A DNA stretch of 64,000 nucleotides from a virus. Lineage: Duplodnaviria > Heunggongvirae > Uroviricota > Caudoviricetes. The notes beneath the pieces were generated by a model that saw only the letters and a program-made list of their open reading frames with translations, had not been told where the DNA came from and did no database searches. The stretch is taken from positions 64,001-128,000 of the IMG/VR virus record IMGVR_UViG_3300037484_000445; one strand, 5' to 3'. The position numbers and the translations under genes are program-made. Within the stretch, counting starts at the first letter, position 1, and each line of letters starts with the position of its first letter. Positions 625 through 35,872 of the stretch are shown piece by piece.

Positions 625-2019
625 TTGAGCACCAACACCGCACAAAGAAGGCTCATAGCCAGGTACCTCAACGCGAAACCCGTGGAGAACAAAATCGATC
701 TTCACACAGAGTTTCCGATTGCTATGTTGCGTCTGGCGGGATCCGAACGAACCGCGGCCTTTCCTCCTTTTTCCAAGAATGGTCCCCCTGAACAACCAGT
801 TGAAGGGGGCGGTACTTCAAAGCGAAACATTCCCAAGGATCACCCTTACGACCCACGATCCTTGAAGCCTATGGCCAAGTCGTTGTGGGCTGCGAGCGTG
901 AGTTTAGGTCATGCCCTAACGGCTTATCGTCACTTGAGCCGCTTGAAGTCCGGTACCATCAGCCCCGATGGGATGCTTGGGGGGCGGGGTTACGTGATGG
1001 GTATAGCGGATATCCGCAAGAAGCTCTATGACGCTTGTGAAGCCCTAAGTGCCATCACGGATACCCTTCACGACGAGATCATGGCACCTCATTGGAAGCC
1101 TCGTTTAGCTCAATTGGATGCTGAAGAGGCCGAGGACGTCGAGAACTACGTTGAGGAATCCCAGGAAATATTAGCCAATCCTGAGGATGAGGCTGAAGAA
1201 GAGGCTGACGAGATCGAAAGTCACAAGCCCAAGGCAAAGGGCGCTGATGACGAAGATGAGAAGGACGAGGACGAAGGATCCTCGGAATTACCCGGTGGTG
1301 GAAGCCCACCTGAAGCGTCGGCACCCCAACCGATGACGCCCAAGATGGCTAATTCGGCGTGGCCTACAGGAGTGCTTCCTGGGGGCCCTAGAATTGTGCA
1401 TTTGGATCGTCAAGATCCAGACCCCAACCCTCCTGAGGCCTACCCTTCCGATGACTGGGGGACTCCAACGGAAAAAGAGTACCTGTACCCCACACCGTTT
1501 ATGGGTGTCACGGTGCAGGCTGAATCCGTTGTGCCCGACGCTACAACGGAAGACACACCCACGGAAGCTTGGGACTTTGGATTGGGCTACGGTGCTCACG
1601 GACAGGGTGCTGGCGGGTACGAGAACCCTTCGGACGAAGGTGTTGGCAACAAGGGTGTTTGGGGACCACACAGTGGTCTGCCTGGAACTCCCCCTATTTC
1701 TTCCGGGGATAGTACACCAGAACTAGATTACAAGACCAATGAACACTTGGCCCAAGGGCTTCTCCCGAATGACGGCCAACCCCCTGTAGCTCGGACGGAC
1801 TATTTCCGTGGGGATCGTGGAAATCTGATCAACACGCAATCCACTTTACCAGGAGAGTCGACGCCAAGCGGAGAGTTTGCTCCTAGCTTGATGAACACCG
1901 ACTTCACCTATGAGGACGTAGAAACCCCTTACGTCCGATATGACTACACCACTCACGATTACAGGAAAGACCCCCTTCATGCTTGGCCTCAAAAAGCTGA
2001 GCAGGACAAAGAGCCATGA
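625..2019 (+). CDS. Acidic/Pro-rich hypothetical protein, probable internal head protein
   Basis: 464-aa ORF with N-terminal RRLIARYLNA motif, RTA/KMA/VQA motifs and low-complexity acidic tracts. Confidence 0.7.
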   Translation: MSTNTAQRRLIARYLNAKPVENKIDLHTEFPIAMLRLAGSERTAAFPPFSKNGPPEQPVEGGGTSKRNIPKDHPYDPRSLKPMAKSLWAASVSLGHALTAYRHLSRLKSGTISPDGMLGGRGYVMGIADIRKKLYDACEALSAITDTLHDEIMAPHWKPRLAQLDAEEAEDVENYVEESQEILANPEDEAEEEADEIESHKPKAKGADDEDEKDEDEGSSELPGGGSPPEASAPQPMTPKMANSAWPTGVLPGGPRIVHLDRQDPDPNPPEAYPSDDWGTPTEKEYLYPTPFMGVTVQAESVVPDATTEDTPTEAWDFGLGYGAHGQGAGGYENPSDEGVGNKGVWGPHSGLPGTPPISSGDSTPELDYKTNEHLAQGLLPNDGQPPVARTDYFRGDRGNLINTQSTLPGESTPSGEFAPSLMNTDFTYEDVETPYVRYDYTTHDYRKDPLHAWPQKAEQDKEP

Positions 2020-3983
2020 CTGAACTTGGAGACTTGACTAGCTTCTTCAAAGAGGGTTCAGCTGTTTCCAACCTCGATTGGTTGGACGTTGACGAGCAAG
2101 CCTATCGTGAGTTGGAGACGCTCCCGAAGCAGAACTTGGATATAGCTCCAGACCTTGAGGCTCTGTGGAGTCATCAAGATGGGTCTCCGTCCAAACTCGT
2201 TCCAAACACAGGTGCCCCAAGAACTATGGGGGATCTTTCTGAGGCTCACGGGCGACTGCGTTCGGTGCCTGAGGATTTGATCCGAACGGCTCGATTGGCC
2301 ATAATCCAAACGACGAACCCCCAAAAGATCAGTAACTTACTGAAGGTTCGTTATGACGGCGATACCCTGGCCGCGGCGAAAACAGCCTTAGGTCAGGTAT
2401 TTGCTGAGCGTGGTCTATTGGGCAGGCTCTATATTGCTGCCAGCGATTTCACCAATTGTCAGGCATCGGCGGACTTTGTTCGACGCTTTGCTTCCGAGGC
2501 TAAGTACGTTTTAGCCAAGCAAGCTTGCGGTGATTGTACCCGCAGACATGCCCAGGCTAATGGATCCAGTCATTGTAGTGTGTTTCACAAGGAAATACAG
2601 CTGGATGTTCCCTACTCAGAGGCTTTGGCTCGCGAAGTCGAAAAGCGAGAAGTTTCTAAGAGTAAGGCAATACAAGCCTCGAGTGCAGATCCTAAAGAGA
2701 GGATCCGTAATGCCTTCTTGGCAGAGGAGTTCGCAACCTCAGCTAGCTTCACAGGACGTACTCAGGTGGTTTCACCTCGAGTGGCCGTTGATACTAGTCA
2801 GGTTCTGATATCTGCCGAGAACCTGACCAAACAACGTAAGGCTAGCGAGCAAAAGGCCCTAGCTGAAGTCAAAGCTCGTCCAATTGTGGCCCTACTCCGT
2901 CGAGAGATGATCAAAGGTCGCTCCGCTGAAGAGTTGGTCAAGACCTTGAGGTTGGCATTCGATGTTAGGGACTTGGGTGAGACTCAAGCCGTGTGGGCTC
3001 CTTTGTTTAAGGAAGCTGGCCTCTATGGTGCAGTCTACATCACACAGGAATCCTTCGACGATTGCCGTGAAGGGGCTGACTTCACGAACAAGCATGCTTC
3101 CAAGGCTAGGGCCATTGTGGCCGGCAACAAATGCTCTAGTTGCTTCTTCCGTCAGGCAGCTCGTTGCATGATGTACGGCCGTAAGCTGATTGGTTCGGCT
3201 GAAGAGGTGCTCACAACCGAAACCGTTCAAGCCGTGATTGATGAAGGTCGTATCGCTGGTAAACTGCCCTACGACGCAGCTCAGAGGCATTGGGGGTCTA
3301 CTCCAGTAGAGGCTCTGAAAGCCCTTCACAAGGCAGCCTCGGCGCCCCTGGCTGGGACCGTCTTGGATGTCCGCGGTACCATTGAAAGAGCCTTCCATGG
3401 TGCCACCCGCGTCACTCAGACAGGTGAGCTCACGAAGCGCAACATTGTAAAGGCAACTTCGCGGTATCTGAATGAAGGTCTTTATGGAGAAGACCTCAAA
3501 CAGGTACTTCAGAGTAGCTTTGGCCCGAGGGATCTTCTGGCTGCAGCCCAAGAACTCAAGGTGGTTCTGGCTGAGCAAGGACTCCAAGGCATCAAGTACA
3601 TCGATCCGACAGTCTATGCCGATTACGGAAAGGGTTGTGCTGAAGCGTCTCGGCTTCATCGATCGCGATCTGCAGTTCGCTACGCAAAGGTGGGTCCCAG
3701 TTGTGGATCTTGTGTCCACCAATCTTGCCCAGGTACATGCTCGGTCCTCAACAAGCTGTTAGTCGTTGAGCCCCCCTATATTGACAAGTTGGCAGAACAG
3801 CAAGCCATCCTAGATTCAGGGCGTTCGACAGAGGTTACTTACGCCTCTTTGGTGAACAACGGTCTCACAACAATGCAGGAGTACCAGTTGCAGAACCAAG
3901 ACATGTCCTTGGATCTCAATCCTGTAATGGCTTCAGATGCCACTTGGGTTGAGTTTGGTGTGCAGCAGGAGCTCAAACTGTGA
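2016..3983 (+). CDS. Cys-rich protein with three internal repeats (putative Zn-binding)
   Basis: Three units of E.GL.G..YI...C..C...C..(F/Y/L).K with cores CGDC, CSSC and CGSC. ATGA overlap with the upstream gene. Confidence 0.75.
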   Translation: MTELGDLTSFFKEGSAVSNLDWLDVDEQAYRELETLPKQNLDIAPDLEALWSHQDGSPSKLVPNTGAPRTMGDLSEAHGRLRSVPEDLIRTARLAIIQTTNPQKISNLLKVRYDGDTLAAAKTALGQVFAERGLLGRLYIAASDFTNCQASADFVRRFASEAKYVLAKQACGDCTRRHAQANGSSHCSVFHKEIQLDVPYSEALAREVEKREVSKSKAIQASSADPKERIRNAFLAEEFATSASFTGRTQVVSPRVAVDTSQVLISAENLTKQRKASEQKALAEVKARPIVALLRREMIKGRSAEELVKTLRLAFDVRDLGETQAVWAPLFKEAGLYGAVYITQESFDDCREGADFTNKHASKARAIVAGNKCSSCFFRQAARCMMYGRKLIGSAEEVLTTETVQAVIDEGRIAGKLPYDAAQRHWGSTPVEALKALHKAASAPLAGTVLDVRGTIERAFHGATRVTQTGELTKRNIVKATSRYLNEGLYGEDLKQVLQSSFGPRDLLAAAQELKVVLAEQGLQGIKYIDPTVYADYGKGCAEASRLHRSRSAVRYAKVGPSCGSCVHQSCPGTCSVLNKLLVVEPPYIDKLAEQQAILDSGRSTEVTYASLVNNGLTTMQEYQLQNQDMSLDLNPVMASDATWVEFGVQQELKL

Positions 3984-4471
3984 AACGTCTTCGTGGCCAA
4001 TACGAGTATGTAGCCATTTTTGATGACGCCTCCTATTTTCCGGGCGTGTCAAAGGCGGCTAAAAAAGTTGCCGCTGCTTTTAGGGCTTCGACAGTGGTTC
4101 ATCGTTTGGTCGCTCGTTACAAGACAGCAAATCAGCCTCCAGGAGCTCGGCAGAAGGCTAGGAAGAACACGAACCCCATCAACAAACCTAGGGGTATTGT
4201 CAAGGAAGTAGCCAAAGAACACGGCGCTATGCGAGTAGAGGGGGACGACAACGTCAGGCCTCAATCTCGAGACATTTTGCCTAAGGACGTCTTCACACCC
4301 ACCCCCGATCATACAGGGGTCCTGAACCTAGCTCAGAGTGGGAAGGACTTGTCCAAACCTATCAATAAGCAGGTCCCCAAGGATAAGGGTTACGACGTTG
4401 TTCGCAACCTCTCTCAGTACCTGATCCGAACGAAAGGTACCGGAGAAGAGGGGACCGAGGAAGGTCGTTAG
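3980..4471 (+). CDS. Basic hypothetical protein, probable internal head protein
   Basis: 163 aa; carries HRLVARYKTA; GTGA overlap with the upstream gene. Confidence 0.7.
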   Translation: MKRLRGQYEYVAIFDDASYFPGVSKAAKKVAAAFRASTVVHRLVARYKTANQPPGARQKARKNTNPINKPRGIVKEVAKEHGAMRVEGDDNVRPQSRDILPKDVFTPTPDHTGVLNLAQSGKDLSKPINKQVPKDKGYDVVRNLSQYLIRTKGTGEEGTEEGR

Positions 4472-4472
4472 T

Positions 4473-5093: not shown

Positions 5094-5096
5094 TTT

Positions 5097-7088
5097 ATGG
5101 CCAAAACCAAAGGCCTGTCCAGCCTTGTTCGTCAGGTTGGGCAAAAGATCAGAAGCAACAGCGGGGGCGAGGTAGTCGGGTCTGATGGTCCGAAGATTTT
5201 CAATATTCTCGACTACATAGAACAGCCTTGGGGTCTCAACATGACCCTTTACCCAGCTCAGCGCTTCATTGTGAAGCTCTACTATGGGTTGGAGTTGGAC
5301 ACCACCTTACCTGAGGATCCCAATCAGCGGATCCAGGTGACGGATATGTTCAAGTCCGAGGTGAAGTACGAGTTCACCGAGGTGGAGTACCTTCATTACC
5401 TGTTCAATGAGGGTCGATGTAACATTGGTGCTCAGGACCATAGCCGACGAGAGTTGGTTATGCCCATCGGTCGCCGTGGCGGCAAGACTACTCTTTCAGG
5501 CATTTTTGCCAGTTATGAGATCTACCGCCTTCTCAACCTGTACAACCCACAGTCTTACTATGGGTTGCCGAATGGCAACCGTATTCAGATCATGTCGGTT
5601 GCAACAGGCAAAGAGCAGGCTGGTTTGCTCTTCAATGAAGTCACCTCGCATTTAGCCAAGTGCGAGTACTTTAGCCCTTTCATTGCGAACAACACCCTGT
5701 CGCATGTGAATTTTCGTACCCCCTACGACATTGAGAAGTTCGGGCCAGCCGCTCGACAAGAGAACGGCAAGTTCGTCAGCTTCAATGGTAAGGCCACTCT
5801 TCGCGTAACCTTCAATAGCTGCATAGCTAAGGGTCTTCGTGGTCACGGTAACATCGTGATCATTTTGGATGAGGTCGCTCACTTTCAGGACAAGGGCAAT
5901 AGTTCGGCTCAAGAGGTTTACAACGCTGTTACGCCGTCGTCAGCCGCCTTCTCCTACAAGGATCCTAAGACTCACCGTCCTGCCATCGATCGCGTAACGG
6001 GCAAAGAGGCAGAAGTCGAGAGTCGCATTATCTTGATTTCGTCCCCCTTAGGTCGTTCGGGGTTGTTTTACAACCGCTACGACTTAGCCATGAGAGGTGG
6101 CGAAGGGGCCGAGAACATTCTGGCTATTCAGGCACCTACTTGGGAGATCAATCCTACGGTTCCGGGGGCCTACTACAAGCAAAAGTACCATGAAAACCCA
6201 CCAGTTTTCATGGTTGAGCACGGGGCACAATTCAGCGACCAAACTCGAGGCTGGATTGAGCGTGAATCGGATCTCACAGCTTGTATTAGGTCTTCGTTGC
6301 GCCCCAAGAGAATGGCTGCCCCGCGGCAACCCCATCAAATGGGGATTGACGTTGGTTTGGTCCGTGGTGGCGACGGTACCACTGTAGCCATCACACACAC
6401 AGAGGAAGACCGGATAATTCTTGATTACCATGAGGGCTGGTACGCCGGCATCGATTGGCGTGTAACTAACCCTCACTTGGATGGGATTTTTTCGGTCGAT
6501 TATGCCCGTAGAATAGCCGACGTTGAACGCCTGGACTTTGACGAGATCGCCGAGTGGATCAAATCCCTTTGCCAGAAGTTCCACATTACGGCTGGGTTAT
6601 TTGACCGTTGGAACGGTATTCCGCTTGAACAAGCCCTACATAAGAAAGGCCTGAAGCAGTTCAAGTCAGAGTTCTTTCCGAGGGACACAACGAGCAAAAT
6701 CTACCAAACCGTCAAGATGACCATGTACGACCAGAAGTTGGTTCTCTATGACTACCCCTTACCTGAACGTGTCACAGAGGGATCTCGTCATTCCCCTCTG
6801 ATTGCAGAGCTATTGTCTCTGCAAGCCACCCAGGTTTCCAAGAACATGGTGGTCGTCGAAGCCCCGGAAAAATCAGGTAGTCACGACGATTTCAGCGATG
6901 CCTTGGTCCGGTCTGTCTGGCTTTCGACCGAAGTCATTATGAACCGCAAGCACACTTCTCACGGGAGTCCTTATCATCCGGTAATAGCATCATCTATGAG
7001 TCCTCAACGGTACCAACTGTCGCGAGCTCGACACCACGGTATAAGTGACCGTAGTTTGGTTGGTCGTAGCATTGTGAGGCCGAGGTAA
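5097..7088 (+). CDS. terL: Terminase large subunit
   Basis: Walker A GRRGGKT, Walker B IILDEVAHF, coupling motif ISS, nuclease acidic motifs GIDVG and HDDFSDA. Confidence 0.93.
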   Translation: MAKTKGLSSLVRQVGQKIRSNSGGEVVGSDGPKIFNILDYIEQPWGLNMTLYPAQRFIVKLYYGLELDTTLPEDPNQRIQVTDMFKSEVKYEFTEVEYLHYLFNEGRCNIGAQDHSRRELVMPIGRRGGKTTLSGIFASYEIYRLLNLYNPQSYYGLPNGNRIQIMSVATGKEQAGLLFNEVTSHLAKCEYFSPFIANNTLSHVNFRTPYDIEKFGPAARQENGKFVSFNGKATLRVTFNSCIAKGLRGHGNIVIILDEVAHFQDKGNSSAQEVYNAVTPSSAAFSYKDPKTHRPAIDRVTGKEAEVESRIILISSPLGRSGLFYNRYDLAMRGGEGAENILAIQAPTWEINPTVPGAYYKQKYHENPPVFMVEHGAQFSDQTRGWIERESDLTACIRSSLRPKRMAAPRQPHQMGIDVGLVRGGDGTTVAITHTEEDRIILDYHEGWYAGIDWRVTNPHLDGIFSVDYARRIADVERLDFDEIAEWIKSLCQKFHITAGLFDRWNGIPLEQALHKKGLKQFKSEFFPRDTTSKIYQTVKMTMYDQKLVLYDYPLPERVTEGSRHSPLIAELLSLQATQVSKNMVVVEAPEKSGSHDDFSDALVRSVWLSTEVIMNRKHTSHGSPYHPVIASSMSPQRYQLSRARHHGISDRSLVGRSIVRPR

Positions 7089-7090
7089 TT

Positions 7091-8911: not shown

Positions 8912-9385
8912 ATGCCAAGCCCCTCTACCCCAGAATCCTCAGCTGCCAAACGTGTCGAGCATGAGGCTGCTCTTGCCGAGCGTGAAGAACGTGAGGTTGA
9001 GGCGTTAATCCAGAAAGTTAGGGAAGCTAAGAGCGAAGCCATGGAAAAGCTCTTGGCTTTGGGCACTTGTGCAGATGCCTTACGCCAACATGGGCGCCGT
9101 AACCACACGGACATGTCCGGTGCCTTGATTATGTTTGCCACGGCCCACATGAGAATTGCGGGGGCCGCAATTCAAGGGATCCGTCGGACAGGCCCAGTTG
9201 ATCGTGTAGTTGATCGCGCCAAGTCTGAAAGGACTGAGGCCATCCGTTTCGAGGAAGAGCGTTTGGTGAGAGAAAATTCCCGCAAGGCTCGCGAGAAAGC
9301 TCAACGACAGGTCGATCGTCTAACCTTCCCTGTTGATAACGACGCTATCGATGAACTTTACGGGGAGGTAGATTCAGATGCCTAA
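8912..9385 (+). CDS. Coiled-coil hypothetical protein
   Basis: ORF-track 8825..9385; the ATG at 8912 avoids overlap. Charged and helical. Confidence 0.6.
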   Translation: MPSPSTPESSAAKRVEHEAALAEREEREVEALIQKVREAKSEAMEKLLALGTCADALRQHGRRNHTDMSGALIMFATAHMRIAGAAIQGIRRTGPVDRVVDRAKSERTEAIRFEEERLVRENSRKAREKAQRQVDRLTFPVDNDAIDELYGEVDSDA

Positions 9386-11210
9386 TTACACGAACAGCCC
9401 AGTAGGGCCTCAATATATTGTACGTACTTCGCTACGTCAACATCGCCCCTATGTGGCCAGCAGTTTTTCGAGTCAACTGACTCCTAAAGAGCGTCTAGCC
9501 CGGCAGCAGCAAAAAGTCGCCAACGGGATGGGGACTGCGGGTGGATATGGAGTTGGTGGAGGATTTGGCGGCAGTAGTATCGGTATGGGTGGTGCTGGCA
9601 GCACGATCTTGAGTTCTCAGGGTAACTTCTTCAGTCCACAACTCTCGACTGACTTCCTCGAGTTACCTCAGAGCATTCGTGAGCGCCGAGAGATCTACAG
9701 GCACTTCTACAATTCCGATGAGTTGGTGGGTCAGGCTCTAGACATCCACACTGAGCTACCTCTTTCCAAAGTTCGGTTGGCAGCGCCTAAACCTAGACTA
9801 GCCCCTAAGGGTTTCAAAAGTCCCGAGGATTACGGTAAGTACATTCTCAGTCGATTCCAACGTATGTGTGATAGGGTTAAGCTATTTCAGCGCCTCATCA
9901 CCATGGTCCACCACTATTGGTTGGATGGGCTGGCCTGCATTTTTGCTGAGGATAGCGTAGTCGAGGTTCCTCCTGAAGTGGGTCACACTCGCCAGCGGGT
10001 AAAGCAAGCTGTCCTTAAGGAAGATGGTGTGCCTGTTGAAGAGGAAGTGGACATTTGGACTGAGGATGAGACTACTGAAGAGCGAGAATTTACGTACTAT
10101 CGTAAGCATTACCGTGGGTGGGAAAAGCTCATTGTCCTTCCGATCGATAGGGTCAAGATCACAACCTTCGATTACACAGACAAGTCTATTGTCGAGCTGA
10201 TTCCTTCGAACAGAGACCGAGTTCTCATCGATAAAGCTCGAACAGGTGATCCCGTAGCCCAGAAGTTGGTCCAAGAGATTCCCGATGAGGTTAGGGACCA
10301 TATCGAGAAGGGCCAAGCCATACCTTTGGGAACAGATCCCGAAGAAGGCTCTTTTGCCTACATCCTCACGGGTAGCAAAGATGCGGATTCTTCCTTGGGT
10401 CATTCGATCCTAGATCGGTGCCTAAGGACCTTGTATTACAGGGAAAAACTACGTCAAGCTCAGACGTCGATTGCTTCTCGGGCTATGACACCCAAGCGCA
10501 TTGTTTGGGCTGAAGGGCTTTCTGATGTGGACGTCGACATGCTCCGTGAGCAGGTAGATTTGTCCTTGGTTGACCCGGACTACTCTATCGTCACGAACTA
10601 TGAGGTTCATTGGGAGGAGATGGGTTCTAGGGACCGTTTGTTGGATCTCTCCACCGAGTATGAACAGACGGAACGGCGCCTTTTGGCAGGTCTTGGTGTG
10701 ACCGAGAGCCTTATGTCTGGGGAGTCTCTCTATTCGGGAGATCGCCTCAAGCTAGAGGTCATCAACCAACGATACTTACATCTTCGTGAGATCCTGCAGG
10801 AGTACGTCGAAGAAAGCCTATTCCGTCCAGTAGCTCAGCGTATGGGCTTCATCGAGGAGGATGAGTGGGGTCAGGAAGTCGTGTTGTTTCCACGGTTGAG
10901 TTTCACGCGGATGCCCCTACGTGACAGTCAGGACACGTTCGATGCTTTGATGAACCTGTATCAAAAGGGTTCGATATCTATCGATCTCATCCTCGAGTTA
11001 CTAAATATCGATCCCGATGACACACGGATGAAAATCGAACGTGACCTGTTCACGGTCAATGACGCCTTGTTCAACGAAATCCTTCGATCGCTTTACAACG
11101 AAGTGGGTCGTATGTTGGCCGAGAAGTCGGACGTTTTGGACCGTGTTGCCAAGTACATGCAGCTGAAGCTGAAACCTGAGGAGCCTGAAGAGGGGGCCAG
11201 TCGTTTCTAA
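9378..11210 (+). CDS. Portal protein
   Basis: 610 aa between terminase and protease. Portal-like segments YRHFYNSDELVGQALDIHTELPLS, GHSILDRC and LLAGLGVTESLMSGE. Confidence 0.82.
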   Translation: MPNYTNSPVGPQYIVRTSLRQHRPYVASSFSSQLTPKERLARQQQKVANGMGTAGGYGVGGGFGGSSIGMGGAGSTILSSQGNFFSPQLSTDFLELPQSIRERREIYRHFYNSDELVGQALDIHTELPLSKVRLAAPKPRLAPKGFKSPEDYGKYILSRFQRMCDRVKLFQRLITMVHHYWLDGLACIFAEDSVVEVPPEVGHTRQRVKQAVLKEDGVPVEEEVDIWTEDETTEEREFTYYRKHYRGWEKLIVLPIDRVKITTFDYTDKSIVELIPSNRDRVLIDKARTGDPVAQKLVQEIPDEVRDHIEKGQAIPLGTDPEEGSFAYILTGSKDADSSLGHSILDRCLRTLYYREKLRQAQTSIASRAMTPKRIVWAEGLSDVDVDMLREQVDLSLVDPDYSIVTNYEVHWEEMGSRDRLLDLSTEYEQTERRLLAGLGVTESLMSGESLYSGDRLKLEVINQRYLHLREILQEYVEESLFRPVAQRMGFIEEDEWGQEVVLFPRLSFTRMPLRDSQDTFDALMNLYQKGSISIDLILELLNIDPDDTRMKIERDLFTVNDALFNEILRSLYNEVGRMLAEKSDVLDRVAKYMQLKLKPEEPEEGASRF

Positions 11211-11242: not shown

Positions 11243-14200
11243 ATGCACCGTGAGGCCACAAAGACTGATCTGCAGAAGCAGGATGAGGAGTTTCAGCGCT
11301 TAGTAAGGCCTAGCCCTAAGCAAAAACCTCCTCGTCATGACCTGCGTCGTGAGCGGGTCGACCTTGAAAGTGATCCAGACAATGAGGATCCTTCAGACAA
11401 GAAGGATCGCAGTCGTAATTTCAAGGATATTGGTGGGTCTGTCATTGCTCGTCTGGTTCATCGAGCCCGGACTGAGCGAATTCCCGCTAGGAGCCGTGAA
11501 ACCGGCGATGTTGTTCAAATCTCACCGAAGACACTGAAGGAGCGCCCGGGTGAGTATGAGGTCGTTGAACCCGAAGAGGAAAGCTCAAAAACCGAAGGTA
11601 TTGAGCCTAAGGAAGAAGAACCTGAAGCGAAGCCCGAAGGTCCGACAGAGTCGTCGAAACGTACGAAGTTCTACCAAGATGCCGGGAACGCTCTACGTGA
11701 CTTAGCTCAAGGTGATCCTAAGCTCACAAATAAGTTGAAGGACTTTGGGCGTCCTGATTCACAGATTTCTGGTCTTGCCAAGGAGAATCCGGATTTTCCT
11801 GCAGCCAAGCTGTTTCCCGGCGTTACCCTACCTAAGGGTTTGAACACCCTGGGGGACATCAAGGAGGCTTTAGCTAACGCTGTGAAGCCTTCAAAGAAGA
11901 CGAAGGCACCATCCACGAAGCCTCCACCAGCTGAGGCTCCTCAAGAATCCCCAGGGGCAAAGGCCCAAACTGAAGAGCCCCCTTCAGCAACTGAAGAGCC
12001 CCCAGCAGCGCCTAAGAAGAAGGAACCACCTAAGCCCCCTAGCCCCAGAGCTCAGGCTCCACAGGAGGCGCCTGAGGCCAAAGAGCCACCCACTAAGGCC
12101 AAGGCTCCTAAGAGCAAGAAAGGGCCCGGGACCCCGCCTCAAAAGCCTGAGGCTAAGCCAGAAGCCCAGAAGCCCCAGCGTCCCAAAGAAGAGGGTGACC
12201 TTGAGTCTCCCAAGTCTGGGGTGGAGGTTCTTGATCACATCCCCACGAAGGCTGAGCTCTACCAAATCAAAAAGCCCCCGCGGCGCGAAGTTTCATCGGA
12301 CGAACGACAGGCAGCCCTGAGTCTTTTGATGGACACGTTTCCGCCGAACATTTCGTCGGAGCTCATAGCCAAGAACATTCACCCGGATGATGTGCGTGAA
12401 CTTGTTCGTAGTTACGGTGCTGCTAAGGCAGCGGGCCCAAAGAATCTGGATCGTCTAGTCTCCACGGTTTCTAAGGTTTACCAGACCGATCCCGATGAGG
12501 TTGATCCCCCTACCGAAGGGCTTAACGCTCAGGGTGCGACGGTTTCGTTTGACCAGTTAACCCCGGAAGAACAGGCGGAAGCTACCTTGAAGCATCAACT
12601 TCAAGTGTCGGCATTAAGCCTTGCGGCACACGATATTCTCACGGACAAATTGTCTCAAAAGGGCGCCATTTCTGGAAGGGCCCGTGTTCCCTCGAGTTTG
12701 GCTTCGACTCTGGCCGATAACATCCTCAGACCGCCGGATCCGAGCAATGTCGCAGCCATAGCATCGGAGACGTTCAAGGCTGCTCTTGAAGGGGGCGGCG
12801 GTTCTCTGAGTCCTAAATCAGCTAAGGCTCTGTTAACACGAATCTCTAAGTACCCTGGCGCAAAAGAGATCGCCACAGCCTACATGCAGGCTGCCGATTA
12901 CACTCAAGCTAAGACCGAATTCCTAGATAGCGCTGAGATTAGTGAATGGGATAGGCCAGGCAAGATCGTCAAAGGCCTAGGTAAAGCCGAGGAGTTCTTC
13001 CGTAAGCGCAATGCTGAGTACGGCACTTCTGGAGAGCATCCGGCGGCACGGATGTTTAGACAGCGAGTTGTTAACCGTTTGAATGCCCTTGATCCTACTA
13101 AGGCTAAGGCTGTTAGAGGTCGTTTGGCAGAACTCGAGAAGTCCGAATACGCCGACCAGGTGAAGGACTGGCACGAGGCTATGAAAGAGTACTTGGAGCG
13201 TAAGAAAGAACACGCCCAAGCCCATGCTGAGTACCTTTCGAACCCCCAAGGCAAGTCGCCTCCGGGTCCGTTTTTGGATGTTGCGCCCACAGAGCCAGCC
13301 AAACCGGCCCACAGTTTCGACAAAGAGGAAGGTTCCAAGTTGTGGAGTGACCTAAGGGAGCCTTCAAAGAAACCGAAGCCTGCCAAACCGGCTACTCCAA
13401 AGACGCCTGAATCCACGGAAACTCCCGAGCAAATTGCTGCTGTTGCAGATGAAGCCTGGGACAAAGCCCAACAGGAACAGGGGAAGACCGCTTCAGCGGT
13501 TGATAGATTCACTTATTCATTACGTTCTGTGATGGCCCCCTCTGCCAAGACCAGTGTGTATCACGGGATTGATCCAAAAACGAACCGTCCAAAAGCCTAT
13601 GAGGGTTGGAGTCAGTTCCACCAGCGGGATTTTGGGGAAAAGGACGTTCAGGCTATCTTGGCTTCGGCTCAGGATTGGCTTAAGTCTCCCTTACTGACGG
13701 TGGCTGTGAATGAGATGGTGCCAGACGCCAAACTTAGGGCGGCTTTGGACTTGGCCATCTACACAGGTCCTTACAATGGGGCCATACCTGCCAAGACTTA
13801 TGATGAACTGTTGGCTAAGTTTGCTGGCGTCAAAGAGCCCGGCCGTGGCGAAACTCTCCTGACAAAAACAGCTGATTTCAAGACGGAAAACGTCTTTCTT
13901 GCTGTTTATGGCCCGACGCCAATTGATGAACGTGTACTGAAGGCTCTCGAAGGCCCTAAGTTCACCTTCATAGACGCTTCGGGGACTGTGTTTGAGGACG
14001 GCACTATCGAGCCTCGTCTCGTACGACAAGGTTCTGTGGGTGCTGGACCAGGGTATGTGGGTGAAACCCTTGTGAGGATCAATTTCCCAGAGGGATCATC
14101 GGATGCTGCCCTCAAAATAGCCACTGGTGTTTTGGGATCCTTGAGGCTTAGGGCTGAAAAAGTTACTGCGTCGTACACACCTTCGTCGAGGGCGGCAGAC

Positions 14201-14554: not shown

Positions 14555-14947
14555 ATGAAGAAACTATCGAAAGAGCAGTCCGTAGCCGCTAGCCAAATGC
14601 TGGGTCGTGTGGATACCTTGGCTCAGACCGTCATGCAGCGTTATGCTAGCTGGGGGATGAGTCAGGATGACGCCAAGAGGGTAGTGAATGCCCTTGATTC
14701 CGTTGCCGATGACTTCGAGCGTTGTGCTTTTGGTGAGGAGTCCCTTCAGGCTCGCCAGATTGAAGTTCTGAAGCAAGCCAAGGTAATTCAACAGGACAGC
14801 GACGAGTCCTACATGGGCACGTTCAATGCTCCTACGGCCCCCATTCAAACGGACGGTGATGAGCCTTACATGCAGGCTTACAAGGATGATCAGACCACTG
14901 CGGTCAACTCCGGTAAGTCAACTGTTGGTCGTCCTCTCGCTCCGTAA
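14555..14947 (+). CDS. Hypothetical head-associated protein
   Basis: 130 aa, AGGA upstream, KQA motif, duplicated D.DE.YM.(T/A)(F/Y) element. Confidence 0.7.
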   Translation: MKKLSKEQSVAASQMLGRVDTLAQTVMQRYASWGMSQDDAKRVVNALDSVADDFERCAFGEESLQARQIEVLKQAKVIQQDSDESYMGTFNAPTAPIQTDGDEPYMQAYKDDQTTAVNSGKSTVGRPLAP

Positions 14948-15698: not shown

Positions 15699-17228
15699 AT
15701 GGCCTTTTCAAAGTACGCTAACGCTGTCGTAGCAAAGCCTGTTGTGAGCCTTGACGCTTGGCGGGACTTTCGTGCTAACAGTCTTCCATTCGACAAGAGA
15801 GCGGCTGCTTCTAAGCTTCTTTTGCAGAAGTACGACCCCTCTAATGTGCTCTTGAGCCATGCCACAATCATGGCTTCGGTGGACATAGAGAATGGCCCTG
15901 GATCATTAGGGAGACACCTAGAACAGGGACAAGAGATTGATCGTAGGTTTGCAGATTACTACATAACCCCTAACACTTCCAAGTACGTCAATTCGAACGG
16001 CGATTCTTGGAGTAGGGCCGTTCTTCTTGCTACCTATAAGGGTTTCATTGGGGCACAGAACTACTGTGAACACCTTCAGATCCCGGAGCTTTCTAAGGGT
16101 CGAATCATTGATGCTGCAGCGAGGGACATTGGGGACAGCATCTACATTGATATTTTGGTGGCCACGGAGAAGAAGCACCAACCCCTGATTAAGGCTATCA
16201 CTTCGGGGCAGCTGAACACCATGAGCATGGGGTGTTCGGTTGAGTTCACCCAGTGTAGTAAGTGTGGCAACGTTGCTGTCGACGAGACTCAGCTTTGCCG
16301 CTGTGTTAAGTACTCGAAACTGTCAACATTCTTCGACACTTTAGGCCAAAAGCGTGTAATCGCCGAGCTTTGCGGGCACAGTTCTCTCCCTAACTCGGTG
16401 AAGTTCATCGAGGCTTCGTGGGTAGGCAACCCAGCTTTTAAGGGTGCTGTGATCCGAAACATTCTTTCGCCGGACGAGTTGGCTCAATTTGCTCCTCAAA
16501 TCGGCAAGGTCTTTTCGTTCCCAGCGCCTATTGCAGACCCGTCTTTGATGGCCAAGGCTGCTCGGGACCAAGGATATATTGTTAGGCATCTAGGTGACCC
16601 CCGGAGCCGCGTCATTCTAGGGCAGGGACAGGGGTTTGACTTCGGCCAAGGTGGTCAGTTCGAAGGGGCTGATGACGCTCCGAAAGCCGAAGAAACATCC
16701 AAAGAAGACCCACTTCAGAAGGCCGTCGATGACTTAGCAGGGATCCTCAAAGAGAAAGCCCTGGAAAAGGTTCGTGGTGAGATCACACAGAAGGAAGTAG
16801 CTCCTCGTGCGGATCTCAACGAGAACAAGAACGAAGGTTTGATCCGTGAAGCCTCACACGATGCTTATTGGCGTGAAATAGCCAGTTCTGTCGTGGCTAA
16901 GGTTAAGGATCCCACAAGATCTCGTCGGATACTATTAGGTCTTCTGCTGTTCAAGAACGGTGGATGGCACGCGATTCGTGAAGCGAATTGTTTCTCTGGT
17001 CGCGAAGTACTCGGAATCTCTAAGTTTTTGGACGAGTTCGAAGGCGTAAAGATTGCTGGTGAGGCTCGTGTGTACCGAACTGTTTTGGCAGTCGGTGGGG
17101 CCTCCCCATATGGAGATGTAGAAGGCTTTTTAGCGGCATGTCGCCGTGTTTTTCGTCGAGAGTTGACTTCCTCTGAGCGAGACGCCCTCATCACTAAGGG
17201 ACGCCTCTATGACCTCGGGTCGTTGTAA
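15699..17228 (+). CDS. Prohead maturation serine protease (HK97/assemblin fold) with Zn-finger insertion
   Basis: NSNGD, YCEH (His), GRIIDA, SMGC (nucleophile Ser), CSKCG...LCRC, FIEASWVGNPA. Lies upstream of scaffold and MCP. Confidence 0.85.
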   Translation: MAFSKYANAVVAKPVVSLDAWRDFRANSLPFDKRAAASKLLLQKYDPSNVLLSHATIMASVDIENGPGSLGRHLEQGQEIDRRFADYYITPNTSKYVNSNGDSWSRAVLLATYKGFIGAQNYCEHLQIPELSKGRIIDAAARDIGDSIYIDILVATEKKHQPLIKAITSGQLNTMSMGCSVEFTQCSKCGNVAVDETQLCRCVKYSKLSTFFDTLGQKRVIAELCGHSSLPNSVKFIEASWVGNPAFKGAVIRNILSPDELAQFAPQIGKVFSFPAPIADPSLMAKAARDQGYIVRHLGDPRSRVILGQGQGFDFGQGGQFEGADDAPKAEETSKEDPLQKAVDDLAGILKEKALEKVRGEITQKEVAPRADLNENKNEGLIREASHDAYWREIASSVVAKVKDPTRSRRILLGLLLFKNGGWHAIREANCFSGREVLGISKFLDEFEGVKIAGEARVYRTVLAVGGASPYGDVEGFLAACRRVFRRELTSSERDALITKGRLYDLGSL

Positions 17229-17272
17229 TTCTCTTTATAGATACACACTTGAGTAGAAAGGGTGATCCCGTC

Positions 17273-18657: not shown

Positions 18658-19293
18658 ATGCCTCTTCAAGCCGGTCAGAGCTCGGGTGACTTCCGGGAAA
18701 CCAGTGGACGCGTCCAGATTCTTCACGAAGGCATCCGTAACTCGGTTGGTATTCTTACCGCCGATGCCTTCACGCAGTCCAATCCCGCGATTGTCGCCGT
18801 AGTGGGTCCACCCACCACCATCAGCACGCAACTTTCGGGCATCACCAAGAAGGGTGTGCTCGGAGGTACGGTTGCTTTCACTCGTCCCGATGCCGGTAAC
18901 GGCTATCATGGTGGCCCGGTTCAAGTCGGTGCCGCATATGTTGCGGGACAGAAGCCACTCGGCCTCTTCATCAACGATTCCCTAGGAAATGCCTTCGAGA
19001 ACACCCCCGGCGTTGCCTCCGGTCGTGGCCCCTACCTCTGTGGTCGTGGCACGGTTGCCGTTAGTGTGTGGGAAACGCTTCAGCAGATCACCCCATCTGC
19101 TACGGCTCTTACGTACACCGCAGGTAACAAGCTCTACGCCAGCGTCAATGGGTTGCTCACCAACCGTATTGAAGATGCGTACGAGTACAACGTTGCGGCT
19201 CAGAACGATCCCGACTTCGTAACAGTTGTTGGAATCGTGAAGATCGCTCCTGACGCCAACAACACCCTCATGGTGCTCGACCTTCGCATCTGA
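18658..19293 (+). CDS. Capsid cement/decoration protein
   Basis: Directly upstream of MCP, strong AGGAG RBS, pattern Y.AG.KLY....GLLT...VVGIV...P. Confidence 0.7.
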   Translation: MPLQAGQSSGDFRETSGRVQILHEGIRNSVGILTADAFTQSNPAIVAVVGPPTTISTQLSGITKKGVLGGTVAFTRPDAGNGYHGGPVQVGAAYVAGQKPLGLFINDSLGNAFENTPGVASGRGPYLCGRGTVAVSVWETLQQITPSATALTYTAGNKLYASVNGLLTNRIEDAYEYNVAAQNDPDFVTVVGIVKIAPDANNTLMVLDLRI

Positions 19294-19346: not shown

Positions 19347-20225
19347 ATGCACCAAGTTTCAAATGAACTGAAGCAACAGATCATCAGTGAGTACGTCAAG
19401 ACCGCCGCTGGTCGTGCCAAGCTCGCTGCTTCGATGGTTCAACCGCTCCGCATGCGTCGTGATTACACGGCGGTAGGTCGTAAGACCTTCTTGGTGGAGC
19501 AGCTTCCGGATGGGGCACTGCCCATCTACGATAAGGATCCCGACGTGTCAGCCTTTGTGGTTGGCGAAGAGGGTCAGAACATCCTTGCCATCCAGAAGCC
19601 ACGTAGGGTCATCTTCCCGTTGTTCGAGATCGCCTCGAACCCCGAGATCCCCCTCACGCAGATCAAGGAGCGTCGTTTCGACCTCATCGAACGTAGCCAG
19701 GACCTTGCAAAGGCCCAGATTCAGGCTGCCGAAGATGAGCGTGTGTTTGCAGTTCTCGACTCGATCGCGATGTCGGGCTTCGACACTCTCCCTGGTCAGC
19801 TGAACCCCGACGTCGCCGTCGTAGCTCCGATCAGCCCATCAGTCCTCGCGGACGCCTTTGCTGAGATCGAGCGTCACGACTTGCGTGTTGCCCGTATCTA
19901 CATGAATGCCGTCGACTACGCCGACATTCGTAAGTTCGGTCGCGACATTCTCGACATCGAGAGCCAGGCCACGTTGCTGAAGACCGGTCTTCAGGCAACC
20001 CTCTGGGGCGCCCAAATCATCACGAGCCGTCTGGTCCCAGCCGGTTACGTGTACGTTTGCGGCGAGCCGGAGAACTTCGGTCGTATGCCGGTTCGTACGG
20101 AACTCACGGTTCTGTCCGCGGACGACCCGAAGGCTCGTACGATAGGATTTTCTTGCTTTGAAAACCTGGGTATTGGGGCGTTCAACCCCCGTGCTCAGAC
20201 CCGTCTGGTTGTCACTCGCGTGTAA
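19347..20225 (+). CDS. Major capsid protein (HK97 fold)
   Basis: Follows protease, scaffold and cement genes. ASMVQPLRMRRDY.AVGRK...LPDGALPIYDKDP and TLWGAQIITSR.VP.G.VY; AAGGA RBS; downstream hairpin. Confidence 0.85.
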   Translation: MHQVSNELKQQIISEYVKTAAGRAKLAASMVQPLRMRRDYTAVGRKTFLVEQLPDGALPIYDKDPDVSAFVVGEEGQNILAIQKPRRVIFPLFEIASNPEIPLTQIKERRFDLIERSQDLAKAQIQAAEDERVFAVLDSIAMSGFDTLPGQLNPDVAVVAPISPSVLADAFAEIERHDLRVARIYMNAVDYADIRKFGRDILDIESQATLLKTGLQATLWGAQIITSRLVPAGYVYVCGEPENFGRMPVRTELTVLSADDPKARTIGFSCFENLGIGAFNPRAQTRLVVTRV

Positions 20226-20983: not shown

Positions 20984-21607
20984 ATGACCTCGGTTCAAGC
21001 CAGCAACCTTGTTCGCCGCTTCAAGGAAGCCTATAGCCCCAGTGTTACTATACCGAGGCCAGCGTACTTGCCTCCACAAGTTCGAGGCATGGATCCAATG
21101 GTCCCTGAGGGCACGGATATAGCTATCTGGCTTTGGGAAGAAAACGGTAAGCCCTACGGAATCGCCTTTCAGGCCAAATCCAATAAGCCCTTGTGGCACT
21201 TCAGTTTCCGAAACGAGGCTGAACGGGACCGCCGAGTTAAGCAGACCATAGACTCACGAAAGCTTACGTTGGAACGTAAGCAAAAAGAACAGCAGGAACG
21301 GCGTGAGTTCAAGCACCCTTACAATGAAGGGGATATTCTCTACTCCTCTTGGGGGTATGACGAGACTCACATCAACTTCTATCAGGTGACGGATCTCAAG
21401 GGGAAAATGGTTCTAGTCCGTCCTATAGCTTCCAAGACCACCAAAGAGGAGAAGGGTGCTGACTACGTGAGTGCCGCCAAGGATCACTTCACGGGGTCCG
21501 CAGTCAAGGTTCTACCGACGCCGAATGGTTTGAAGATTGACGGCCACTACGCCACCATTTGGGACGGAAAGCCCAAGTACGAGACGGCTATGGGTTGGGG
21601 ACACTAA
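20984..21607 (+). CDS. Hypothetical protein, probable internal head cargo
   Basis: N-terminal VQASNLVRRFKEA tag; C-terminal YSSWGYDETHINFYQV beta domain. Confidence 0.7.
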   Translation: MTSVQASNLVRRFKEAYSPSVTIPRPAYLPPQVRGMDPMVPEGTDIAIWLWEENGKPYGIAFQAKSNKPLWHFSFRNEAERDRRVKQTIDSRKLTLERKQKEQQERREFKHPYNEGDILYSSWGYDETHINFYQVTDLKGKMVLVRPIASKTTKEEKGADYVSAAKDHFTGSAVKVLPTPNGLKIDGHYATIWDGKPKYETAMGWGH

Positions 21608-21609: not shown

Positions 21610-22173
21610 ATGGTCGTTGACCGTATAGTCTTGTACCACGGCACAGACTTGTCTCGGGCCCCTATCCTTAGGGTACGTAGCTACTCAACAACGGACTTTT
21701 GGATAGCTGCTTCGTATGGTTTGGATAAGACGGATCAGAAGGAATGCTACGTTCACGAGTATGTCGTAGACAATCCCTTTGAGATCATTAATCCTGACGA
21801 AAAGCATTGGTGGAACCAACAGCAAAGGCTGGACTCCAAGTACAACACTGAGATGGGCCATGACGCTTTCTTGAACAACGAGCCTCTTAAATCTTCTGGT
21901 AAGAAGTGGCACTTTGTCTTGAAGCCCGAAAAGACTCTTGGCTCTAATAAGTGGCACAACTACGACATTACGCCCAGACCGCCGCAACCTATGAGATCTG
22001 CCTCAGTTCGCCGCATTGTGGCTCGCTACAAGAGGGCTGTTATCCGCAAGGAGAAAGGGGAGTACTGTGTTAGGTCCCCTAACAATCCCGATTGGAATGG
22101 AGGGTGCTACCCCTCCAAAGAGAAGGCTGAGGAGCGACTTCGAGAGGTTGAGTACTTCAAGCACAAGGACTAG
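21610..22173 (+). CDS. ADP-ribosyltransferase-like domain fused to a small C-terminal domain
   Basis: LYHGT...YSTTD...A.SYG...VHEY pattern, then SASVRRIVARYKRA and YCVRS...GCYPSKEKAEERL. ATG 21610 follows the upstream stop. Confidence 0.5.
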   Translation: MVVDRIVLYHGTDLSRAPILRVRSYSTTDFWIAASYGLDKTDQKECYVHEYVVDNPFEIINPDEKHWWNQQQRLDSKYNTEMGHDAFLNNEPLKSSGKKWHFVLKPEKTLGSNKWHNYDITPRPPQPMRSASVRRIVARYKRAVIRKEKGEYCVRSPNNPDWNGGCYPSKEKAEERLREVEYFKHKD

Positions 22174-30297: not shown

Positions 30298-30307
30298 GTA
30301 ACGTGAC

Positions 30308-30667
30308 GTGGCGTTTACCCTACTCCCAGAGATCGTTCGAGTCGAAGGCACCAGCTTCTATCGCACAGACAGAAGGTGGCAGCCCAAAGACCTCATTCCG
30401 GATCCGTACCGGAGGAACCTTCTCAAGGATGCCCAGGGGCGCCTCAATCGGTTGGAAGAGGCGGTCGACGAATTTCAGCAGCTCGATCGGGCGCCTCTTT
30501 ACATCAAGCTCCTCGCTCGTATGCGGCTTTACGTTAAGAGGGCTCAGTTTGCTTGGCGTACTGATGACCTCGAATTTCTCAAGCAAATCGCCAAGTTTTT
30601 CACTGATTATGGGCTTGTCCTTCAGAACTTGAAAATCGATCAGGCACGAGGACGGCTTGCAGTCTGA
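30308..30667 (+). CDS. Hypothetical helical protein
   Basis: Fills the gap between two surface-protein genes; preferred over the overlapping frame 30303..30632. Confidence 0.5.
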   Translation: MAFTLLPEIVRVEGTSFYRTDRRWQPKDLIPDPYRRNLLKDAQGRLNRLEEAVDEFQQLDRAPLYIKLLARMRLYVKRAQFAWRTDDLEFLKQIAKFFTDYGLVLQNLKIDQARGRLAV

Positions 30668-30682
30668 TTAGGAGTCCTAACC

Positions 30683-31804
30683 ATGCGTATCGGAGTCATT
30701 CGTGGCGATCTTCCAGGCCCAATCCACCTTCAAGACTTGGAGGTAGTCTCTCAATACAACCCGACCACGGAACCTCGTGGCCAGGAACGCTACATCGGCC
30801 GTCCAACGACGGTAGAACTCGAAGCGGTTCTTGCCAACGCTGTTTTTGGTGCAGGTGCAACCATTGAGGGTTCAGATATCGTAGGATCGTTCCCCCTTAC
30901 GATCACGCTTGGTGCCGACGACACCCTACAGGTTCGCACATCAGCCACGGCTTCGTACACTACCGTCGTTATTGCGGCGGCTGTTTATGCAACCTTCGCA
31001 ACCTTCTTGGTAGCTGTCAATGCGGCTTTGAATGGTACGGGAGTTGTTGCCCGGCAGGGAACTGGTTCGGGGACGAGGCTCGCCCTCGAGTCTTTGACCC
31101 GAGGTGTTGGTTCGTATCTTGGCGTCGCTGCGGCAGCCACTTCCACCTTCAATACCCCGGCGGGTTTTGGGGCTCTGGCTTTGGTCAGGACTATGCCGTC
31201 AGCAGCCGCTTTCATTTTGGCATTGAACCCTGTTGCCGGCGTTCTTGACGTCTCGACGGCGACCATCAATGGTGTTGGAGCTACAACCAATGCCAACGCC
31301 ATCGGGCTCATTCCAGCGGCTCGTGGCACGACTACGGCCATAGCCGAAGCCATCGCTCCAAGGATTGTCGAGACCTATACGGCTATCGACAGTTTCTTGG
31401 TCGGCATGATCTCGGAATACCGTAGTGCAAGCTACAATCCGGATTCCCGCCGTGGCTTGACCAACGGGGCAGCTATCTCCGTGGTTCAGGATGATGGTGT
31501 GACGCCTTATGCCCCAACATTGCCAGTGTTGACAACGGCCGACTTCAACACCCCTGTGCCAGGATCTATGACCATAACAGGTACTGGCTTGGGCACGTAC
31601 GAGAGCAAGGACACTGTGGTCAAGGTTGTTGGACCTACGATCAACAAGACTTTGGCTCAAAGTACCATCGAAGCCGCTGGCGGTACCATTGCTGATACCA
31701 CAATTGTGATACCGGCTTCGTTGCTCACTGGGGCAACACTGACGACCTCTACGGCCAGAGTCAAGGTTCGACAGCGTGTCTCTAGCGCTGTTGCCTTGAC
31801 CTAA
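30683..31804 (+). CDS. Virion surface protein, Ala/Thr/Gly-rich, with C-terminal IPT/Ig-like domain
   Basis: AGGAG RBS; C-terminal P.LTTA...PG.MTITGTG resembles the repeats of 29404..30297. Confidence 0.7.
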   Translation: MRIGVIRGDLPGPIHLQDLEVVSQYNPTTEPRGQERYIGRPTTVELEAVLANAVFGAGATIEGSDIVGSFPLTITLGADDTLQVRTSATASYTTVVIAAAVYATFATFLVAVNAALNGTGVVARQGTGSGTRLALESLTRGVGSYLGVAAAATSTFNTPAGFGALALVRTMPSAAAFILALNPVAGVLDVSTATINGVGATTNANAIGLIPAARGTTTAIAEAIAPRIVETYTAIDSFLVGMISEYRSASYNPDSRRGLTNGAAISVVQDDGVTPYAPTLPVLTTADFNTPVPGSMTITGTGLGTYESKDTVVKVVGPTINKTLAQSTIEAAGGTIADTTIVIPASLLTGATLTTSTARVKVRQRVSSAVALT

Positions 31805-31920
31805 GCTTAGGTCACGTTAGGGGGCCCTATTGTGGGCCCCCAGATGAACATCAAAACCCAGATCTACAGATCAGACTCAGAACTTTACGGCTCCTTCGGG
31901 GGTCGAGATTGGGATGCGAT

Positions 31921-32163: not shown

Positions 32164-32190
32164 CATACGAGTCCTTTGTTCTAGTGGGTC

Positions 32191-32574: not shown

Positions 32575-32595
32575 CCCCTTCCAAGGGATATGTAA

Positions 32596-34849: not shown

Positions 34850-34855
34850 CCCTCG

Positions 34856-34903
34856 CCACTGAACACCCTACTTGAGCTAAGTCTCGTGTAGAGTGTTCAG
34901 TGG
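34856..34903. terminator. Long inverted repeat (terminator or processing hairpin)
   Basis: CCACTGAACAC...GTGTTCAGTGG 11-bp perfect arms just after a stop codon. Confidence 0.55.
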
Positions 34904-34945
34904 GCTAAATACACAGCATTGGCGCTTGTGAGGATGCCGTGATCG

Positions 34946-35449
34946 ATGTTCGTTTGTCGACACGGCATACTTGTGCGTTGGGTGGTCATTATGCTGTACT
35001 CACGTGAGAACGACGACACACTCGTAATTTACGACACCCTTATCATTAGGGTTAGTAGAAATGTAGCCCCTAGGGCTTGTGTCCTACCGGTACGGGGGTT
35101 GATACCTTCTAGGACATTTGGGTATCTGCAGTCCTTAGGTCCGGGTGACTTGGCGATCCACCTCGAGAGTGACCAAGGGGCAGTTTCACCTTTTTCTGTC
35201 CACTACACCCTATACCAAGTAGCCTCTTCGGGAGCGTTACTTCGAATTGGCGTTTGTAAGACGGCTCTGGGTGATTCTTCAGGGGGTTACTACGTTGTGG
35301 GCCGTGCTGGGGAGCTAGGCCAACCCGGCCTTTGGGCGATTCGATGGGAGGTCCGCCTAACACATCATTCTATGCCCCAGTATGTTCAGCAGCAGTTCAC
35401 GGTTACTTCGGAATCCACCCTAGCCTCGAGTCGTATTCAAGGGTGGTAG
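34946..35449 (+). CDS. Ig-like protein related to the N-terminal domain of the downstream neck protein (start uncertain)
   Basis: YTLYQV...GGYY...GLWAIRW resembles YALYDV...GHYY...GDYRIRW in 35872..36768. Confidence 0.55.
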   Translation: MFVCRHGILVRWVVIMLYSRENDDTLVIYDTLIIRVSRNVAPRACVLPVRGLIPSRTFGYLQSLGPGDLAIHLESDQGAVSPFSVHYTLYQVASSGALLRIGVCKTALGDSSGGYYVVGRAGELGQPGLWAIRWEVRLTHHSMPQYVQQQFTVTSESTLASSRIQGW

Positions 35450-35458
35450 AGAATCGAT

Positions 35459-35479
35459 TTATGCTAATGCTTGAAGGGA
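35459..35479 (+). promoter_or_regulatory. Putative late promoter TTAT-N15-GA
   Basis: Exact motif upstream of ATG 35486. Confidence 0.55.
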
Positions 35480-35485
35480 TCCGCT

Positions 35486-35872
35486 ATGTCCGCCAAGACC
35501 CTAGTGCAGCGCTTTAAGTCAGCCAACGAGGACGTGTGGCTTTCACGGGAAGATGTTGCTCAGATTTGTCCTTCCTGTGCCAACAAGATGGCTTCCAAGG
35601 GCATCTCCAAGGTTCGAGCTTCAGTGCTATTCTCGGACGAGCGCTTGATGACGGCTGCCCTAGGTCGGATGGCTAAGGGGTGGGGGAGTCTCCCCAAGGG
35701 GTGGACACAAGCATCTCTCAAAAGCTTTTGGGAGTCCTTGACGGGCGATCGTAAGCACAAGGTGACTGCGTGTATCTCTAAACTGAAGGGATCCGAAGGG
35801 GTCGATGATCCGGGAGCCTTTTGCGCATCACTCGCGGACCGCCTGGAACCCGGCTGGAGAAGCGAGCGATAA
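35486..35872 (+). CDS. Small basic protein, probable internal head protein
   Basis: KTLVQRFKSA tag, CPSC, KMA/VRA/RMA motifs; TTAT-N15-GA upstream. Confidence 0.7.
   Translation: MSAKTLVQRFKSANEDVWLSREDVAQICPSCANKMASKGISKVRASVLFSDERLMTAALGRMAKGWGSLPKGWTQASLKSFWESLTGDRKHKVTACISKLKGSEGVDDPGAFCASLADRLEPGWRSER

Follow-up and report, generated by a model that had tools for sequence, protein, structure and literature searches.

A portable basic peptide on unrelated accessory proteins of a huge-phage clade, a candidate signal for loading cargo into the head

Why should otherwise dissimilar proteins of one phage carry the same short basic peptide, and what might read it? The question is raised by a 64,000-base stretch of viral DNA (bases 64,001-128,000 of a single 451,925-bp contig with 52% G+C, genome label G000; hereafter the window). 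A preliminary description of the window had listed five such peptides and a weaker sixth, and had read them as an address that directs cargo into the phage head. All five translate as described, at 640-675, 4088-4129, 20993-21031, 21991-22038 and 35489-35524, and the weaker copy was borne out as SVIARLVHRA at 11438-11467. The analysis given below makes it well supported that this peptide, referred to here as the tag, is a real, selected and portable element found throughout a large clade of phages on accessory proteins that are otherwise unrelated. Loading of the tagged proteins into the head, with or without the phage ClpX, is a possible explanation of its role, which we favour tentatively.

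A recurrent peptide tag

A total of 676 open reading frames (ORFs) were called in the whole of G000 and were scanned with a 12-residue matrix built from ten seed peptides. The scan returned 27 sites of at least 13 bits compared with 1.2 expected in shuffled proteomes, and 15 of the 27 begin within the first 12 residues of their protein, where 0.1 would be expected. A matrix made from the five original peptides alone recovered seven further sites of at least 14 bits (0.6 expected). The strict pattern [LI][VI]xR[YF]xxA is present six times in the G000 ORFs, five of them in the window (mean of 0.8 and maximum of 4 in 300 shuffling runs), so that by both the ten-seed matrix and the strict pattern the motif is commoner than in shuffled proteomes.

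Alignment of the copies gives the consensus x-A-x-R-[LVI]-[VA]-x-R-[YF]-K-x-A. Among 22 aligned copies the second arginine never varies and the aromatic position that follows is nearly constant, but the final alanine is found in only 12 copies and the residue following it varies. The cleavage that had been envisaged after this alanine is therefore unsupported. For one copy in the window, N-terminal placement depends on the start codon: the copy in the ORF that begins at 3980 lies 38 residues into the longest reading frame and would be N-terminal only if translation really starts at the in-frame GTG (4094). Tags were also located at the C-terminus (for example in the G000 gene at 330543), in the interior of proteins and in tandem.

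Two other readings were rejected. Synonymous positions differ between the copies, which places the likeness at the level of the protein and not of a DNA repeat. A twin-arginine translocation (Tat) or membrane signal does not fit, since no hydrophobic core follows the tag and a transmembrane-like segment is present in only one of 22 tagged proteins.

Whole genomes of relatives were also scanned with the matrix. For orthologue comparison we used a complete 437-kb relative (G002), which has 183 of the 676 G000 proteins in common with it at a median identity of 47.5%. Here, the tag is kept in the orthologues of a topoisomerase IB (TopIB), of the window gene at 625 and of the genes at 283621 and 448048. 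Orthologues of a 450-residue protein encoded at G000 195762-197114 (locus L003) hold an N-terminal tag down to 36% identity, and one of them has two tags in tandem. The source annotation (P0002) begins this gene at Met19, after the conserved tag; this is an annotation pitfall, as automatic gene callers may hide such tags. Recent shuffling is visible at the fourth copy of the window, where bases 21620-21998 are missing from a near-identical contig (L202, 98-99.5% DNA identity). The protein of L202 reads Met-Val-Val-Gly followed directly by the tag, whereas the window has a domain of 127 codons between the start codon and the tag.

These results bear on whether the tag has any common function at all. 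It could be the remnant of an ancestral N-terminal helix that was spread by recombination, or a favoured context for the start of translation. The accessory genes of these phages do often recombine, and some tags are part of larger units that several proteins share (the HP-ADP box and the tag-hairpin unit described below), both of which would suit such an origin. We nevertheless regard it as very unlikely, given that the tag is retained in orthologues of 36-50% identity despite diverging flanks, that C-terminal and internal copies exist, that the codons differ among copies and that the arginine and the aromatic residue are invariant or nearly so.

Companion modules and cargo

Outside the window, the tagged proteins include the type IB topoisomerase (Pfam PF01028, E = 1e-25) and, in G000, three proteins with HExxH motifs, while many others are ORFans. 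They are mostly single-domain proteins of 95-490 residues. Searches of Pfam and PHROG with 26 tagged proteins gave mostly no matches, and an ESM Atlas search with a 60-residue protein returned unnamed clusters only. The proteins had been called otherwise dissimilar, which holds for the five in the window but less well elsewhere, where several tagged proteins share an HP-ADP box, a CVRS module or paralogous zincins.

CVRS, named for its C-V-R-S core, is a hyper-conserved module of 45 residues, ten of them invariant, that directly follows the fourth tag of the window. The AlphaFold2 (AF2) model of this region has three strands and then a helix with a predicted local distance difference test (pLDDT) score of 81-87, and the preceding tag helix has a pLDDT of about 40, so that the tag is not confidently packed on CVRS. 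No Pfam family corresponds to the module, and a profile search retrieved 1080 cluster representatives with lengths of 63-1185 residues. In relatives, the combination of tag and CVRS is fused to ART-PolyVal (PF18760, E = 7e-11), SprT-like (PF10263), zincin, topoisomerase IB (PF01028), DUF5661 and other domains, and cargo that bears only the tag in G000 has homologues elsewhere that bear CVRS. The tag itself was present on 34 of 182 CVRS representatives. An obligatory role of CVRS as reader of the tag was rejected because tags were found in the 437 kb of G002, from which CVRS is absent; CVRS is a frequent partner of the tag and not its obligatory reader. The module also displays two invariant cysteines and a W-x-G-G-C core, and it often adjoins DUF5661. 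A further short peptide, Y-S-Y-D-R-R, is repeated at the ends of CVRS proteins (P0059, P0061 and P0079). In one relative (L161 9599-9931) this peptide opens the gene that directly precedes clpX, and it may serve as a second label.

Another companion, the HP-ADP box (M-E-H-P-S-x-E-A-x-K-x-Y-L-x-x-H-P-x-A-D-P-x-N-H-T-V), stands right after the tag in several proteins. It was located in G000 at 30640-31320, 195762-197114 and 408154-409248, and also in the post-portal proteins of some relatives. In the model of the L003 family, the tag helix (residues 5-18) is followed by the HP-ADP box (pLDDT of 84), a disordered linker and a helical body; a Foldseek search with this model gave no fold match. A basic hairpin of a similar kind comes after the tag in the post-portal protein and in topoisomerase IB. 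The predicted models have in common a tag helix of low pLDDT beside confident neighbouring modules, with disordered linkers beyond.

The domain inserted before the fourth tag of the window had been described as ART-like (21610-21990). This assignment is carried by the LYHGT motif and by nothing further: Pfam gave no hit, BLAST against an ART-PolyVal relative gave an E value of 0.2 and the AF2 model is of low confidence. We refer to it below as the LYHGT domain.

Another reading looks for the main partner of the tag beyond both the capsid and the phage ClpX. The tag could dock on another hub, or the helices could bundle together, with effector condensation or the binding of DNA, membrane or a host chaperone as the outcome. 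A basic amphipathic helix that is tolerated at any position of a protein, also in tandem, would be compatible with this, as would a CVRS family much wider than the tag itself, and our analysis pinpointed no receptor. On the other hand, a typical membrane helix would have a stronger hydrophobic face than the tag (the single transmembrane-like segment noted above is in keeping with this), no specific candidate hub emerged, and the placement of tagged genes in structural slots and beside clpX is left unexplained. We consider such a hub unlikely, although worth keeping in mind.

Candidate partners: the head and ClpX

In the explanation that we favour, the tag would be a portable docking helix of approximately three turns with a narrow hydrophobic stripe (h, V/A, Y/F and A) on a basic background. 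In one huge-phage clade it would sit on accessory proteins of the effector type, among them zincin-like peptidases, topoisomerase IB, the LYHGT domain and many ORFans, connected through flexible linkers or immediately adjoining a small hairpin or CVRS. The tag would bring this cargo to one shared partner during virion assembly, and the cargo would be enclosed in the head, delivered together with the DNA and thus injected into the host. The partner would lie inside the procapsid, with the inner face of the major capsid protein (MCP), the portal and the post-portal protein as candidates, and there may be a contribution from the phage ClpX. The ancestral copy of the tag would be the one in the conserved post-portal protein. 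Cleavage after the tag is not required in this model, which would parallel, without covalent linkage, the 'polyvalent proteins' that smaller phages have.

The placement of the tag is consistent with a link to the head. In 13 of 18 distinct relatives, the post-portal protein carries a tag of at least 10 bits, always in the same position behind a conserved N-[YF]-K-x-[VI]-G-G-S stretch; the copy in the window is degenerate. The density of tags around the MCP gene peaks 5-9 kb upstream, at the post-portal protein, and 1-6 kb downstream, at the slot after MCP and UDG, where it reaches about 1.1 per 10 kb compared with 0.44 genome-wide. Furthermore, structural modules house 13 of 20 CVRS loci, spread over four different slots of which one is just upstream of a connector-like gene, and in relatives a CVRS protein occupies the slot that matches the fifth tagged gene of the window. 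Cargo families of the ART-PolyVal and peptidase types have been predicted to be packaged in phage heads and injected (Iyer et al., 2017; PMC5512222), and proteomics of phage G particles detected 104 proteins, including many enzymes and ClpX (PMC12484599).

Several results weigh against head loading. Tags are only some 2.5-fold enriched around the MCP gene, in part owing to shared synteny, and no tag is found in the orthologues of the prohead protease and the scaffold. Many tagged genes are scattered far from the structural genes, and their timing cannot be inferred from promoter motifs because most of them sit inside operons. The clade has no cultured member, and its cultured relatives with the same capsid type, Tunturiibacter phage Tunturi_5 and phage G (first 360 kb), are without such a tag. 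Lastly, clpX is flanked by tagged or CVRS genes of different families in six genomes (G000, G002, L159, L163, L203 and L209). The capsid-address reading of the preliminary description has thus fared unevenly: a portable, selected and address-like peptide on unrelated cargo and several head-related results agree with it, whereas the poorly conserved alanine and the tagless protease and scaffold do not.

The clpX neighbourhood suggests a different or additional reader, the phage ClpX, which is as concrete a candidate as the head and was not raised in the preliminary description. The tag could be a recognition or tether signal for this ClpX, such that tagged proteins would be degraded with the help of host ClpP or remodelled, for example to shorten the life of harmful effectors, with no loading into the capsid. 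The phage gene (G000 194506-195735) encodes a complete ClpX with a zinc-binding N domain and a GYVG pore loop (Pfam matches to AAA_2, ClpB_D2-small and zf-C4_ClpX; alignment with Escherichia coli ClpX from query residue 4), which has an MGF loop where E. coli has IGF and LMN in the place of the positively charged RKH loop. It was found in all eight of the clade genomes examined and is a core gene; no ClpP was found in G000, and Tunturi_5 has neither ClpX nor tags. In addition to the flanking genes in six genomes, clpX belongs to a set of just three G000 genes that have a tagged gene on either side (P of about 0.001), and the occurrence of tags at either end of proteins and in tandem is as in tethers. 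We take the first half of the tag (A-x-R-V-V) to resemble the SspB tail, the likeness being partial. The N domain of ClpX binds the short peptide that ends the disordered tail of the SspB adaptor, and the RKH loops set the specificity; like the tag, such tethers and degrons are short basic-hydrophobic peptides on disordered tails, read by a zinc domain of the type that this phage keeps (PMC9963277).

Other observations make an exclusive role of ClpX rather unlikely. In relatives, the density of tags within 10 kb of clpX is the same as the genome-wide mean, and the neighbourhood statistic loses force because tagged genes tend to cluster overall. The invariant R-[YF] of the tag has no counterpart in known ClpX signals, and other phages that bear ClpX (37 loci, and phage G) are tagless. 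It would also be odd for a degron to be conserved in a head protein encoded beside the portal gene and to sit on genes of late structural slots. In two relatives (G004 280076-282361 and G006 215753-218041), clpX lies within open frames of 777-781 residues and the match is split in two, which looks like an intein or other insertion after approximately residue 115.

The two readings could be combined if ClpX served as an ATP-driven loader and not as the partner of a protease. Its zinc domain would then capture tagged effectors and feed them into the assembling procapsid, as a protein-packaging motor. It has been suggested that the ClpX of jumbo phages might translocate unfolded proteins or aid virion assembly (Iyer et al., 2021; PMC7824862), but a motor of this kind has so far only been floated for jumbo-phage AAA+ proteins (PMC7824862), and for the phage studied here we hold the idea to be improbable.

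Head loading by a short peptide would have precedents. The capsid-targeting sequence (CTS) of phage T4, found on IPI-III and Alt, is likewise a short, mostly N-terminal amphipathic peptide on unrelated proteins of one phage; its genes are scattered in the genome, as are the tagged genes here, and some of its cargo proteins are enzymes directed at the next host. The T4 CTS is acidic and is not known to be related in sequence to the tag, which is basic, is also C-terminal, internal or in tandem, is poorly conserved at the putative cleavage site and in many cases adjoins a folded module (CVRS or the HP-ADP box). A second comparison is with encapsulin cargo-loading peptides and the C-terminal tail of the HK97 prohead protease, in which a short linker-borne peptide attaches cargo to the inside of an HK97-fold shell. 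The capsid protein here has the HK97 fold and is unusually conserved, but those peptides are C-terminal and of other sequence, and binding of the tag to the shell is a proposal. By analogy, the tag may work like the T4 CTS or an encapsulin cargo peptide, although it is not a member of either group by sequence, position rules or demonstrated cleavage.

The packaging of Alt in the T4 head is covered in the same paper as the polyvalent and MuF-fused effectors (PMC5512222), with which the tagged proteins have overlapping cargo (ART-PolyVal, zincin or SprT-type peptidases and DNA enzymes), genes beside head genes and a predicted delivery with the DNA. Such cargo was found in relatives on proteins with both tag and CVRS (PF18760, PF10263 and PF01028), and in G000 as HExxH motifs and topoisomerase IB. 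The difference is that separate small proteins each bear the same peptide in place of one giant polypeptide that unites many effector domains, frequently together with MuF or the portal, and no MuF domain was found among the tagged proteins and the window proteins searched by Pfam and PHROG.

If the tag is a signal for head loading or for hand-over to ClpX, it would provide a simple sequence rule by which to list the injected or regulated effectors of a very widespread clade of uncultured huge phages from soil and sediment, and foreign proteins could be directed into large capsids by means of such a portable handle. The tag would also explain how giant phages are able to swap cassettes of a single effector, as in the 127-codon insertion, instead of maintaining one polyvalent protein.

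The late module and neighbouring genes

The late module of the window is encoded on one strand, with neck and tail genes after the MCP region (Table 1). The MCP has 39% identity to gp27 of phage G and 49% to its counterpart in Tunturi_5, a phage which shows that hosts in the Acidobacteriota can be cultured. Homologues are encoded in 581 related viral contigs, and the best 80 of these 581 are at least 90% identical, which places the phage in a very common uncultured clade. Between G000 and G002 the MCP is 91% identical and is the most conserved protein of the clade.

Table 1. Positions of the tags, tagged genes and main head genes in the window
Feature	Position	Strand	Remarks
464-residue ORF, acidic, Pro/Gly-rich, upstream of the terminase genes; bears tag 1	625..2019	+	G002 orthologue keeps the tag
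Tag 1: AQRRLIARYLNA, ORF residues 6-17	640..675	+	24.5 bits
163-residue ORF with tag 2, accessory gene	3980..4471	+	No G002 orthologue
Tag 2: (V)VHRLVARYKTA	4094..4129	+	29.5 bits
Large terminase	5097-7088	+	Late module
Portal	9378-11210	+	Late module
Post-portal protein, 1093 residues	11243..14524	+	Probably an internal head protein
Degenerate tag SVIARLVHRA	11438..11467	+	After conserved N-F-K-D-I-G-G-S, before hairpin RSRETGDVVQISP
Weak tag-like helix LAQTVMQRYASW in 130-residue ORF 14555-14947	14618..14653	+	11 bits
Prohead protease	15699..17228	+	No tag carried
Scaffold-like protein, Gln-rich, acidic	17249-18577	+	
MCP, phage-G type, HK97-fold	19347..20225	+	
207-residue ORF (phrog_37844, unknown function) with tag 3	20984..21607	+	Variable slot after MCP and UDG
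Tag 3: QASNLVRRFKEA, residues 5-16	20996..21031	+	25.7 bits
In-frame cassette of ~127 codons with LYHGT domain	21620..21998	+	Between start codon and tag 4
Tag 4: SVRRIVARYKRA	22003..22038	+	29.2 bits
CVRS module (VIRKEKGEYCVRSP...VEYFKHKD)	22039..22170	+	Directly after tag 4
128-residue ORF (133 residues from TTG at 35471) with tag 5	35486..35872	+	Just upstream of connector-like gene 35821-36768
Tag 5: SAKTLVQRFKSA	35489..35524	+	24.1 bits

The product of the 130-residue ORF with the weak tag-like helix is fused to the C-terminus of the post-portal orthologue in G002, which indicates that the two form one functional unit. The gene for a Cys-rich protein of 655 residues (2016-3983) separates two tagged genes shortly before the terminase genes; the protein is kept in G002 and gave no family match. 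Two promoter-like motifs were noted in G000: GGTGTA in intergenic regions, 15-20 bases before the start of 40 genes, and CCTTAAG-N20-CGTAT, approximately 36 bases before 21 genes and often in divergent pairs. Additionally, the protein encoded just before MCP (18658-19293) is 76% identical between G000 and G002, far above the median for the two genomes.

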